A stretch of DNA of 39,990 nucleotides from a virus (Duplodnaviria; Heunggongvirae; Uroviricota; Caudoviricetes), in IMG/VR virus record IMGVR_UViG_641736163_000010, one strand, 5' to 3'. The notes beneath the pieces are model-generated. The model saw only the letters and a program-made list of their open reading frames with translations, searched no databases and was not told the DNA's origin. Numbering within the stretch: the first letter of the stretch is position 1; each line of letters begins with the position of its first letter. The translations under genes and the position numbers were made by a program. Positions 24,645 through 27,649 of the stretch are shown here, piece after piece.

Positions 24645-25163
24645 TTATTCAGTTGTTGCTCTGATATATTCATCCAGCAAATCCGGTAATTTATCCCCTG
24701 CCCGCGCACACTGATTTGCGCCCTTTGCAATAAGGGTTTTCAGATGGTCAATATGACGTGGCGTTAAATCCGGGAACTGTCGCTGCATGGATAACGGAAT
24801 GGAATCAAGCGTACTGGACAATGCCATCGCCAGTTTGCTGAGGGCGAAAACGCAGAAGTCTGAATCGATGAGCTTACCTTCGGTTACCTGATTTTTAAGT
24901 TTTTGAGCTACAGCCTGTTCTTCTGTCAGTTCAGCTCTGGCCCGAAGCAGCCTTTCCTCCAGTTCTCCCCCGTCATCAGGTGTTCTCTGATTGTGTTGTC
25001 GCCGCTCGCGATCTATCTCCAGTACAGTTTTAACGTCATATAAAACTTCCCTCCCCCGACGTTCAACAGGAGGAACGCCCCATTTATCAAATGCTTGAAC
25101 AGAGATACCGATGGAGGAGGCCATATCACTTTTATTCAATAAAAAAGGCCATCTCCTCTCCAT
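24645..25163 (-). CDS. nu1: Terminase small subunit Nu1
   Basis: 172 aa; ...EVLYD... and C-terminal half (...EEQAVAQKLKNQ...DSDFCVFALSKLAMALSSTLDSIPLSMQRQFPDLTPRHIDHLKTLIAKG...) align with lambda gpNu1; sits immediately downstream of cos; exact start uncertain (weak SD). Confidence 0.82.
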   Translation of the reverse strand: MERRWPFLLNKSDMASSIGISVQAFDKWGVPPVERRGREVLYDVKTVLEIDRERRQHNQRTPDDGGELEERLLRARAELTEEQAVAQKLKNQVTEGKLIDSDFCVFALSKLAMALSSTLDSIPLSMQRQFPDLTPRHIDHLKTLIAKGANQCARAGDKLPDLLDEYIRATTE

Positions 25164-25179
25164 AAGTCATCGATAAAAA

Positions 25180-25335
25180 GCGAAACAACAACCATGTGTT
25201 TTTGCAAAACCATTTGATATCATTGACATTTTTCGCATTGGCGACATCAAAACACATCGTAAGGTTGTTGTATTTATTTTATTTTCACCTTACTTATCAA
25301 TTAGATATACCAAACAATTAAACAACAACCACCCC
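25180..25335. promoter_or_regulatory. cosB-like region with three copies of an 8-bp motif (GGTTGTTG/CAACAACC) in alternating orientation, candidate Nu1-binding R sites
   Basis: Motif at ~25186-25193, ~25263-25270 (inverted) and ~25323-25330, between cosN and the Nu1 start, AT-rich spacers. Confidence 0.5.
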
Positions 25336-25354
25336 CTCAAAAAATCTCATAAAT

Positions 25355-25392
25355 AGTGAAAACGCGCGAGGTCGCCGCCCCGTAACGATCTG
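25355..25392 (-). other. cos site (cosN; 12-nt cohesive end GGGCGGCGACCT at ~25369-25380)
   Basis: Minus strand reads CGTTACGGGGCGGCGACCTCGCGCGTTTTCACTATTTATGA, matching the lambda cohesive-end junction CGTTACG|GGGCGGCGACCT|CGCGGGTTTTCGCTATTTATGA almost base for base. Confidence 0.9.
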
Positions 25393-25513
25393 GATCACCG
25401 GAAAGGACCCGCCAACGACTTTCGCGTGCAGGCATTAAAAATTTTGCAGTTCCATGCCTAGTTGAAACCTCGATTTCTATAACATCCAATTTTGTAAATT
25501 TAGATATAGCTCA

Positions 25514-25545
25514 ACTTTTCCCAATGTTTTCAAGTGTATAAAAAC
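25514..25545 (+). promoter_or_regulatory. Candidate promoter for the 355-aa gene (TG-adjacent TATAAA -10-like element ~60 nt upstream of the start)
   Basis: gtgTATAAAaac read from sequence; no good -35; AT-rich leader; AAGGAG Shine-Dalgarno 5 nt before ATG 25604. Confidence 0.3.
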
Positions 25546-25603
25546 AATTGGCGTTACGCCATAACACTATACTTAGGATAAGTAAAGATTTTAAGGAGTT
25601 TTA

Positions 25604-26671
25604 ATGAGTCAACATCAATATTATCCACAGCTGAAATGGAAGCCTGCTGAATATGAATCTCTGATGCTTTTAGATCAAACTACGCTCTCTGGTTTTACTC
25701 CGATCATTACCATTCCAGACATAGACTGGGATTATGAAAACGAATGCTACAAGAAGAGTTTGAGTTCTTACTTATCTGACTTCGGTATTAACCTTGCGGC
25801 ATCCTGGAAAGCCAATCGTCCTGTTTTGCTGGATGTTAAATATTTAGATAAACATGGTTCGAGCCGCCATCATCCTCTAGATATGTGTATCCAAGATGCT
25901 AGAGTAAATGGTAAGGAAATTATCCCTGTTGTTTCTCCCGCATATTCAACAAACTATATACATGCTGTTCAACGCAACTTAATCAATGGGCTCGCTATAT
26001 CTATCACCCCCCAGACATGGCACCAATTCACAAGTCTGGTTAACCACTTAAATATTCATCCTAGTTTAATTGATGTAATCATTGATTTTGGAGATATTCA
26101 AAACGCAACTGATAGTTTAAAACAACAAGCATTAAGCATGGTCAACACATTATCAGGCCAAGCTCCGTGGAGAAACTTGATTTTATCTTCAACCGCATAC
26201 CCGGCATCACAGGCAGGGATACCGCAACATCAAGTTCATCATATTCCGCGCCATGAATACGATCTTTGGATGTACGTAGTACAGAATTTTAGCAATGGAA
26301 GAACGCCAAGTTTTAGTGATTATCCCACCGCTAGCTCTACCATTACGAGCGTAGACCCACGCTTCATGTCTCAGTATGTCTCAGTGAGATATTCGAACGA
26401 TACCTCATGGATCTTTGTAAAAGGTACCGCAGTTAAAGGAAATGGATGGGGCCAAACTAAAAACTTATGTACTACCCTTGTTAGTTCGCCAGAGTATCAA
26501 GTCTTTGGCTCCAAATTTAGTTGGGGGGATGATTACATTTACCAAAGATCATTAGGCGCTAACAAATCTGGCGGCTCTAAAGAATGGCGTAAAGTTGCAC
26601 ATACGCACCATATTACGTTAGTCGTGAGACAGCTTTATTGGTTGGCGCAGACTCAGCCTGCCAAGCCTTAA
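25604..26671 (+). CDS. Hypothetical 355-aa protein of AT-rich moron cassette (possibly Beta-protein/sce7725-like; unverified)
   Basis: Long ORF with strong AAGGAG SD; AT-rich codon usage unlike flanking phage genes; opposite strand to the late operon; N-terminal YYPQLKWKPAEYESL; no catalytic motif I can name. Confidence 0.8.
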   Translation: MSQHQYYPQLKWKPAEYESLMLLDQTTLSGFTPIITIPDIDWDYENECYKKSLSSYLSDFGINLAASWKANRPVLLDVKYLDKHGSSRHHPLDMCIQDARVNGKEIIPVVSPAYSTNYIHAVQRNLINGLAISITPQTWHQFTSLVNHLNIHPSLIDVIIDFGDIQNATDSLKQQALSMVNTLSGQAPWRNLILSSTAYPASQAGIPQHQVHHIPRHEYDLWMYVVQNFSNGRTPSFSDYPTASSTITSVDPRFMSQYVSVRYSNDTSWIFVKGTAVKGNGWGQTKNLCTTLVSSPEYQVFGSKFSWGDDYIYQRSLGANKSGGSKEWRKVAHTHHITLVVRQLYWLAQTQPAKP

Positions 26672-27233
26672 CTTTCCAGCCTACGCGTTTCTTTAAGGCT
26701 GTTCTGACTTCAGGCCTGAGATTCGCTATTGGAATATTTTCCGCAATAATATTCCATAACTCAAATCGGGGCTTGCTTTTGATTCCTTTGGAATAGCCCC
26801 ATCGTTCAAGTACGTCGATACATTCATCTTTCCAAAGCAATTGAGCGAGCATCAATGTGTCATGGTTTCGATTAAGCTTTTCTCCACGCATGTGCTTTAT
26901 AAGAATGGCGCCTTTTGGCCCAACAGAAACCGTTTTAACGCCCCACCAACCTGGGATTAACTTTAATGCTCCCTCAAGGTGTTTCTCAGCTACGACAAGA
27001 GTAACCTTGTCCATTACAGAAGAATAATGCTTGATTTGAAGAGGCAAACGCTCCAAAGAGTCATATTCACTTTTGAGCTCGTACCCGTGTATAACACCAT
27101 TTATTACAGCAATGTCTGCTCTACTGGCGCCAAGGGATATGGAAAATTCATCGACCACAAGGCAGTCTGGATCTAAATGCGATTCTTTCAAAAGCTTATG
27201 ATGCACCGCGAACCTAACATCTTGATCTTTCAT
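26613..27233 (-). CDS. Hypothetical 206-aa protein with PD-(D/E)xK-like nuclease motif (possibly sce7726-like; unverified)
   Basis: AAGGAG SD 5 nt upstream of ATG; consensus TATAAT ~30 nt upstream; sequence ...VVDEFSISLGASRADIAVINGVIHGYELKSEYD... fits D-x(n)-E-x-K spacing of restriction-endonuclease-fold nucleases; 3' end overlaps the 355-aa gene by 59 nt (convergent). Confidence 0.8.
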   Translation of the reverse strand: MKDQDVRFAVHHKLLKESHLDPDCLVVDEFSISLGASRADIAVINGVIHGYELKSEYDSLERLPLQIKHYSSVMDKVTLVVAEKHLEGALKLIPGWWGVKTVSVGPKGAILIKHMRGEKLNRNHDTLMLAQLLWKDECIDVLERWGYSKGIKSKPRFELWNIIAENIPIANLRPEVRTALKKRVGWKVKAWQAESAPTNKAVSRLT

Positions 27234-27580
27234 GACTTCTCCTTACTCCCTCCGTTATTGAATTATAGCGCACTGCATTTTACTGCATTTGAGAGATTTG
27301 ACCACTTCAATCACAAAATGCTTATCTGCAGCAACAAGATTCATAGCCATACGACTATGGTGATTACCTTTTGTCTGGAAAACTGACCATTCCACGAAGA
27401 TCAGATAGGTCTATAGAATCTTGGTTTGTCATAGCGTTCGTCTTACTTTGAGATGAACCTTTGCGGCATAGGAGATCAGCCCGTCAAGGCTCACCAGCAC
27501 TAACTGACTACTCAAAGGCTCATTCCAAAGGGTTTGGTTCGACGTGGTTGAGTGCGCTGCGGTGCGCGGTGAAATACCTG

Positions 27581-27613
27581 TACAAAAATGCCCCGCATCT
27601 GCGAGGCATTTTC
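27581..27613. terminator. Bidirectional terminator-like hairpin between Rz and the moron cassette
   Basis: GC-rich imperfect stem (atgccccgc...gcgaggcat) flanked by A-run upstream and T-run downstream on the plus strand. Confidence 0.45.
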
Positions 27614-27649
27614 CTGAAAGTCACGTATTAAATTTCAGTGAAATTAAAA

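Follow-up and report, generated by a model that had tools for sequence, protein, structure and literature searches.

A convergent pair of overlapping genes was identified at positions 25604-27233 of a 39,990-nt stretch of viral DNA (IMG/VR record IMGVR_UViG_641736163_000010, Caudoviricetes; hereafter the window, meaning the whole stretch that was analysed). One gene encodes a Beta-family protein of 355 aa and the other an sce7726/cII-family protein of 206 aa with a predicted nuclease domain. The same convergent Beta-cII pair is a widespread core, to which gop, HigB/M78, TIR and reverse transcriptase genes are optional add-ons. By analogy with the Beta-cII core of the P4 gop-beta-cII and PD-lambda-2 systems, the cassette is probably (roughly 0.65) a self-contained, lysogen-expressed anti-phage module, acting by superinfection exclusion or abortive infection and built on that core. 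The pair is already named in RefSeq and by the Prokaryotic Genome Annotation Pipeline (PGAP), and its family has been linked to validated defence systems; the fold assignments, the bare pair as a core common to two published systems and the phylum-spanning antisense overlap were not found described in the literature.

The cassette is made up of the following features, in window coordinates.

25604-26671, plus strand: beta-family gene (355 aa; predicted divergent TIM-barrel protein)
26613-27233, minus strand: sce7726/Phage_P4_cII-family gene (206 aa; predicted N-terminal PD-(D/E)xK nuclease domain and C-terminal helical domain)
26613-26671, unstranded: antisense 3'-end overlap (59 nt with both stop codons counted; codes for Beta residues 337-355 and for residues 188-206 of sce7726)
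25593-25598, plus strand: AAGGAG ribosome-binding site of beta (5 nt ahead of the ATG; AAGGA invariant among relatives)
27239-27244, minus strand: AAGGAG ribosome-binding site of the sce7726 gene (5 nt ahead of the ATG)

The open reading frame (ORF) coordinates agreed with the original prediction, made from the letters of the sequence, of a convergent pair with a 59-nt overlap, and the separate AAGGAG site that it had given to each gene was found before both ATGs. The AT-rich composition that it had described was also recovered: GC content was 41.7% in the cassette against 52.1% in the whole window, GC at third codon positions was 0.37 and 0.41 in the cassette genes against 0.60 in TerL, and the minimum-GC 1630-nt stretch across the 40 kb begins at 25151, the cassette area being the lowest-GC part of the window. 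Identical loci are named "beta family protein" and "sce7726 family protein" by PGAP.

The 206-aa protein was assigned to the NCBIfam sce7726 family (NF033832, E=2.3e-54; 184.1 bits against a curated cut-off of 70), in keeping with the sce7726-type partner that had been suggested for Beta. The newer Pfam name of this family is PF26915 "Phage_P4_cII"; the protein also matched the PADLOC "cll" model (3.8e-31) and P4 cII itself (27% identity, E=3e-19). By exhaustive profile search the family comprised 5,562 clusters at 50% identity with E<=1e-3, and 1,376 with E<=1e-30. AlphaFold2 models of both cassette proteins were built from homologue alignments (predicted local distance difference test scores 90.2 and 92.1). 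The sce7726 protein was modelled as a restriction-endonuclease-like alpha/beta core fold (PD-(D/E)xK superfamily) followed by a helical C-terminal domain (residues ~126-182) and a disordered tail (residues 189-206), the tail being the portion encoded within the overlap. The active-site motif RADIAVINGVIHGYELK reads D40-x11-E52-x-K54. Residues E29, D40, E52, K54 and Q66 were invariant over 46 sce7726 homologues down to 40% identity, and E29, D40, E52 and K54 are also retained in P4 cII. The D-x12-E-x-K arrangement first proposed is therefore present, with invariant residues, at a spacing of x11 rather than x12, and the predicted fold together with the E...D...ExK pattern agrees with the restriction-endonuclease-fold nuclease chemistry suggested for it. 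PDB sequence searches with the sce7726 profile and with the Beta profile gave no solved relative, and weak Pfam signals sought over all alignment members of both proteins gave nothing consistent.

The 355-aa protein was matched over its full length by Pfam Beta_protein (PF14350, E=8.2e-56, profile positions 1-342 of 342), as had been suggested. The sce7725-type identity suggested beside it gained no support: the NCBIfam scan (E<=1; presence of the sce7725 model in the release was unconfirmed) returned only a spurious ndhI match. PADLOC matches were to "beta" (3.5e-10) and to the PD-Lambda-2_C models PDLC03984 (4.4e-32, residues 141-344) and PDLC03983 (2.2e-25); by BLASTP the protein was 22% identical to P4 beta over its full length. 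Its model has a predicted (beta/alpha)8 TIM-barrel fold, and a fold search with it returned generic TIM barrels only (TMq <=0.41). Over 50 diverse Betas, including P4 beta and PD-lambda-2C types, E16, D161, D239 and H336 were invariant and D77, R216, Y240, Y263, D309, W328 and H335 nearly so. From this conservation, the resulting pocket of acidic and His residues looks like a catalytic or ligand-binding pocket and not a passive scaffold.

Conserved pairing and antisense overlap

Loci were collected by an sce7726-profile scan of one genome per species, which gave 388 confirmed loci; locus statistics were taken from the best 80. These 80 came from Enterobacterales, Vibrionaceae, alpha-, beta-, gamma- and deltaproteobacteria, Myxococcota, Firmicutes, Bacteroidota, Chloroflexota, Melainabacteria and the Candidate Phyla Radiation (CPR). 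A convergent Beta-family ORF lay directly downstream of the sce7726 gene in 77/80; two of the three exceptions were cut by contig ends and one was a true absence, so that 77/78 testable loci were paired. In the reciprocal test, 41/41 Beta-seeded viral contigs carried a cII-type partner wherever the contig extends, and all four distant Beta proteins picked regardless of their neighbours had a convergent PF26915 gene adjoining. The co-occurrence expected of the two genes was thus recovered from either side, and the objection that they might not be found together in other genomes fails because pairing is near-universal. The sole complete locus without a convergent Beta is that of Xenorhabdus koppenhoeferi (L008, 6001-7810), in which two same-strand ORFs (165 and 241 aa) follow the sce7726 gene. 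Separately, contigs labelled Bradyrhizobium, Afipia and a "Bordetella parapertussis" metagenome-assembled genome (L020-L026) all contained one and the same Beta-cII element (110-nt overlap) between flanks that were likewise identical; this is either one mobile element or shared or mis-binned sequence.

Most loci, including the window and all enterobacterial loci, had nothing coupled upstream of beta. In the window, cos occupies the space ahead of beta, and a same-strand ORF of >=40 aa terminating in the 200 nt before the gene was looked for without success; P4 Gop, searched by tblastn against the whole window, had no homologue (best E=0.14), and the PADLOC PD-Lambda-2_A and PD-Lambda-2_B models matched neither of the cassette proteins. 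At 12-15 other loci, PD-Lambda-2_A (HigB) and PD-Lambda-2_B (Xre-HTH plus M78 peptidase) were found upstream of beta, with strong model matches at L035-type loci. Directly upstream of Beta, one pair carried a ThsB-type TIR gene (L129, 442-2709) and another a 489-aa reverse transcriptase (L130, 545-3671); these two appear to be further modular variants of the Beta-cII core, as yet undescribed. A few loci had small hydrophobic or coiled-coil genes upstream, gop-like in architecture only, and one was flanked by GmrSD-HNH and an EcoRI-type methylase. Because the pair stands bare at most loci and with add-ons elsewhere, P4 gop-beta-cII and PD-lambda-2 are read as elaborations of a common Beta-cII core.

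The 3' ends overlapped in 75/77 pairs (median 50 nt, range 11-158 nt), and overlap length was ≡2 mod 3 in 75/75 overlapping pairs, which fixes the frame of one antisense gene relative to the other. Of the four extra Beta-seeded loci, three also overlapped (71, 38 and 38 nt, all ≡2 mod 3). The distance between two invariant anchors, codon W328 of Beta and codon R183 of sce7726, was measured at 79 loci, with the following results.

63 nt: 68/79 loci, the standard spacing
66 nt: 2 loci, in frame
87 nt: 1 locus, in frame
102 nt: 5 loci, the enterobacterial clade of the window, an in-frame +39 nt
103 nt: 1 locus (L006), no overlap
104 nt: 1 locus (L009), no overlap
374 nt: 1 locus (P4), no overlap; 27-nt intergenic gap with an annotated terminator

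Out-of-phase distances were confined to loci without overlap. In distant phyla, the conserved sce7726 C-terminal "LK.R..WR" lies antisense to the conserved Beta helix "HH.T.V..QL.(S/N)L". Entropy at Beta third codon positions was minimal there (1.32 bits against 1.6-1.95 in all other 10-codon blocks), and a minimum at this C-terminal helix fits a dual coding constraint. RNA structure in the overlap region was not significant on either strand (z 0.08 and 0.37); a hidden bidirectional terminator in the overlap, which was considered, was ruled out by this absence, and nothing therefore separates the convergent transcripts. Candidate roles of the overlap would be expression coupling via transcriptional or antisense interference, or a lock against separation of the genes. 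The Beta-cII overlap is in any case a clean natural case of long-conserved antisense overlapping coding in bacteria, with a fixed frame relation.

Genomic slot, regulatory sequences and mobility

The neighbours of the cassette are all on the minus strand, with TerL and Nu1 (24645-25163) on the left and Rz/Rz1, lysozyme and holin on the right. The following features lie between these neighbours and the two genes.

25369-25380, unstranded: lambda-type cosN cohesive-end sequence AGGTCGCCGCCC (found by direct reading; borders the slot towards the packaging genes)
25500-25542, plus strand: promoter-like block ahead of beta, TTAGATATAGCTCAA ... GTATAAAA, with a -10-like TATAAA at 25537-25542 (conserved in relatives)
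27262-27304, minus strand: promoter/operator-like block ahead of the sce7726 gene (conserved in relatives; scan call)
27585-27612, minus strand: intrinsic-terminator-like hairpin (directly downstream of Rz, between the lysis genes and the cassette)

At an E. coli locus identical to this one, PGAP lists, in order, a DNA-packaging protein, a beta family protein, an sce7726 family protein, a lysis protein and a lysozyme. In other E. coli prophages the slot from Rz to the packaging genes holds iss/bor, a TonB-family gene, YfbU or insertion sequence (IS) elements. The description of the site as a bor-equivalent moron slot was upheld by this occupancy, iss being a bor homologue. The 12-nt sequence at 25369-25380 is taken by us to be the lambda cos overhang. 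In 30+ prophage contigs with differing terminase and lysis genes it was located 235 nt ahead of the ATG of beta; cos travels together with the cassette.

On the minus strand the hairpin at 27585-27612 folded at -22.6 kcal/mol (z=-5.05) and was followed by U5; on the plus strand it folded at -14.2 kcal/mol (z=-3.3). Because of the stronger fold and the U5 on the minus strand, it is read primarily as the minus-strand terminator on the Rz side; it was overlooked by a simple terminator scan because of one stem mismatch. The hairpin that had been placed at 27581-27613 as an insulator of the cassette is thus real and separates it from the lysis genes, and its insulating role is mainly that of a minus-strand terminator after Rz.

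Relatives from Edwardsiella, Klebsiella, Pantoea and Pectobacterium have kept the block upstream of beta, as have two viral contigs in which it lies in different contexts; a sigma-70 consensus scan made no call on 25500-25542. From its conservation it is a putative promoter. Three elements make up the block ahead of the sce7726 gene: TGGTCA-16-TAAAAT (27304-27277), two tandem copies of AAATGCAGT (~27291-27270) and a perfect TATAAT (27267-27262); of these, TGGTCA/TAAAAT was picked by the promoter scan. This entire block was nearly invariant across five relatives in different genomes and is a putative promoter/operator; the tandem repeat stands out as a candidate operator by its near-invariance in relatives from Edwardsiella, Klebsiella, Pantoea and Pectobacterium. 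A perfect palindrome, TGGCGTAACGCCA (25549-25561), lies 43 nt before the beta ATG and was flagged as terminator-like on the minus strand; it was rejected for its weak fold (z -0.9) and lack of conservation. Rfam gave no match in 25000-27800.

Cassette proteins were 100% identical across prophage contigs whose flanking proteins varied widely (Nu1 29-100%, TerL 63-100%, lysozyme 34-100% and holin 70-100% identical), and a 77-78%-identical version of the cassette was found at the lysis/packaging junction of an unrelated HNH-TerS-TerL phage type. At least 80% of a query comprising the cassette and its flanks (25164-27649) was present in 126/5,426 complete E. coli genomes. The cassette is mobile between prophages, in the manner of a moron, and for E. 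coli biology it is mobile lysogenic-conversion cargo carried by ~2% of complete genomes. A 49%-identical gop-less Beta-cII pair, also with a 59-nt overlap, was seen directly beside a P4-alpha-type primase (776 aa) in a P4-like satellite (L121, 1502-5669). In E. coli NZ_CP027312.1 (H27) and NZ_CP115370.1 (H32) the cassette is broken by insertion of an IS3-family element or IS2, so that the annotation shows beta as two fragments; in MFDS1016424 it is the neighbouring small terminase gene that is split, by an IS66 element. Such insertions suggest decay or counter-selection in some lineages.

Two further observations concern the surroundings. The spacer from the sce7726 gene to Rz (27430-27650) matched the P22/BTP1 rha gene region at its 3' end with 87% identity over ~221 nt, and this similarity suggests that the spacer, terminator hairpin included, is what remains of another moron or accessory gene. 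Upstream of holin, a 623-aa ORF (29379-31250, minus strand), annotated as a SASA-family carbohydrate esterase at the identical E. coli locus, is further moron-like cargo, in a slot bounded by the antiterminator region on one side and the lysis genes on the other.

Proposed function and rival explanations

The cassette had been put forward in the original prediction as a candidate defence module. Family membership, matches to PADLOC models of validated systems and the defence genes that accompany relatives (HigB plus M78 peptidase, ThsB-TIR or reverse transcriptase upstream, GmrSD/HNH and a methylase alongside) support that candidacy; the anti-phage role itself is carried over from homologues with extra genes. 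In the anti-phage reading, the 206-aa PD-(D/E)xK protein would be the DNA-cutting effector, and the TIM-barrel Beta would be a sensor, regulator or enzymatic partner that either holds the nuclease in check before a phage cue or licenses it once the cue is there. For the P4 homologue the cue is the lambda-family accessory protein orf184, by which killing through gop-beta-cII was triggered (bioRxiv 10.1101/2023.04.06.535777). Each gene would be fired by its own conserved promoter. With separate promoters and no terminator between the genes, the convergent transcripts would overlap, tying expression and inheritance together. All late genes are on the minus strand, so that Q-antiterminated transcription would cross the cassette to reach Nu1 and A. 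By extension from lambda biology, the late transcript would carry sce7726 in the sense orientation and beta in the antisense orientation; the sce7726 gene being co-directional with the late operon and Beta opposed to it, late transcription at induction could shift the balance towards the nuclease.

Several points weigh against this reading. Experimental precedent is limited to homologues with extra genes and does not extend to the two-gene, gop-less form. The known toxins are Gop in P4 and the Xre-peptidase in PD-lambda-2, and an effector role of the nuclease is established in neither. The predicted Beta fold points to no specific chemistry, and the roles given to antisense transcription and late-operon read-through are wholly conjectural. 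Cassettes interrupted by IS elements in some E. coli strains agree with fitness cost and neutrality alike. Finally, the PD-lambda-2 clone (ECOR42 QOYB01000002 228989-232396, genes 229385-232009) extends ~396 bp past gene C. This is too short for a full cII, so that either ECOR42 is without cII or PD-lambda-2 defends without an intact one; if ECOR42 does carry a nuclease gene, Beta-type defence may not always need the nuclease.

A toxin-antitoxin-type addiction module is an unlikely alternative but the one that survives best. Here the pair would stabilise the prophage or mobile element, with nuclease toxin and Beta antitoxin or the reverse, and anti-phage activity would be absent or incidental. 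Such a role would suit the occurrence of the pair on mobile elements, the interlocked 3' ends, which hinder inheritance of one gene alone, and the toxin-antitoxin-like nature of PD-lambda-2 (PMC9519451). Against it, the homologous systems do protect against phage, the slot is one for lysogenic conversion and not a maintenance locus, and the neighbours of relatives are defence genes (TIR, reverse transcriptase, GmrSD and a methylase). The two roles are not mutually exclusive, and the addiction module overlaps the favoured anti-phage model.

Slightly less probable again is a restriction-modification-like pair, in which Beta would mark or repair self DNA, as a DpdA/TGT-type base exchanger or an endonuclease-IV-type enzyme, and the nuclease would cut unmarked incoming DNA. 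In the fold search, dozens of unrelated TIM barrels ranked ahead of DpdA; the PDB and Pfam profile searches gave no modification enzyme with similar sequence, and no cofactor-synthesis genes were linked. The activities reported for relatives also argue against marking of DNA, since PD-lambda-2 works by abortive infection (PMC9519451) and P4 Beta reportedly neutralises the membrane protein Gop and not cII (PMC9122126).

A purely lytic role, in which the late transcript would supply a nuclease for breaking down host DNA or for processing concatemers near cos, with no immunity function, is very improbable: the sce7726 gene runs in the direction of the late operon and is cos-adjacent both here and in the unrelated phage type, but the pair is also found in chromosomal non-phage contexts (Myxococcota, Firmicutes, CPR and others), most related prophages lack it and hold other cargo in the slot, and the cassette has its own conserved promoters and a terminator that shields it from the lysis genes. 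All three alternatives are less well supported than defence.

An extended form of the anti-phage reading is offered tentatively, as possible but less probable than the module itself. Beta-cII, with its thousands of sequence clusters in many phyla, would be an autonomous and ancient two-gene immune core that is missed by defence-finders requiring gop or HigB/Xre. Antisense dual coding would be functional, coupling expression through convergent-transcript interference and blocking separation of the nuclease from its controller; Beta would be a new TIM-barrel sensor or enzyme that licenses the PD-(D/E)xK nuclease, and gop, HigB/M78, TIR and reverse transcriptase would be interchangeable accessory modules.

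Comparison with known systems

Outside defence systems proper, the slot between Rz and cos is shared with lambda bor/iss, and both cargoes are presumably lysogen-expressed; bor/iss is a single outer-membrane lipoprotein gene conferring serum resistance, and its protein is unrelated to those of the cassette. A restriction-endonuclease core with the E...D...ExK pattern is common to the modelled sce7726 protein, MmcB-like/SPO1766 (PDB 3dnx), NucS and the nuclease domains of Can2 and Cap4. Sequence similarity to these proteins is undetectable, and sce7726 differs from them in its extra C-terminal helical domain and obligate TIM-barrel partner. In the sce7725/sce7726 pair of NCBIfam, named from Sorangium cellulosum, the Sorangium locus (L028) has the same convergent arrangement as the window, whose 355-aa partner is called "beta family protein" by PGAP and has no sce7725 match. 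A literature search on sce7725, sce7726, PF14350, PF26915 and Phage_P4_cII found no mechanistic work, and the names sce7725/sce7726 were met in genome surveys only.

In phage P4, gop (247-648) and beta (651-1718, 355 aa) are followed by a convergent cII (1746-2540). The system, "Gop_beta_cll" in PADLOC/DefenseFinder, protects against lambda and P1 (Rousset et al. 2022, PMC9122126); its known toxin is Gop and not cII. Which of the three genes triggered death requires was left unspecified by Silas et al. (bioRxiv 10.1101/2023.04.06.535777). Like the window, P4 carries convergent Beta_protein and cII/sce7726 genes, cos-adjacent and on a temperate mobile element; both Beta proteins are 355 aa, and the E/D/ExK residues are kept in both cII proteins. 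The two differ in that P4 has gop upstream of beta and co-transcribed with it, whereas the window has neither gop nor any coupled gene there; P4 cII is 58 aa longer than the sce7726 protein; P4 beta and cII are separated by a 27-nt gap with an annotated terminator where the window genes overlap by 59 nt; and the host element is a satellite in P4 and a lambdoid prophage in the window.

PD-lambda-2 is toxin-antitoxin-like and acts by abortive infection, with component C needed for defence and an Xre-peptidase as toxin (Vassallo et al. 2022, PMC9519451). Component C belongs to the Beta family, as does the 355-aa protein; neither component A (HigB-like) nor component B (Xre-M78 peptidase) is present in the window. 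PD-lambda-2 was described as three genes without a nuclease partner, whereas the window pair includes one. Natural PD-lambda-2-like operons (L035, L045, L056, L127 and L128) run HigB, Xre-M78 and Beta, then a convergent overlapping cII/sce7726 gene, this fourth gene lying outside the published three-gene system. P4 gop-beta-cII and PD-lambda-2 have so far been treated as unrelated toxin-antitoxin-like oddities. The survey suggests that annotation rules demanding gop under-call the Beta-cII family, and a two-gene core common to both systems, standing alone in most genomes, directs mechanistic work to the core pair and not to the add-on toxins.

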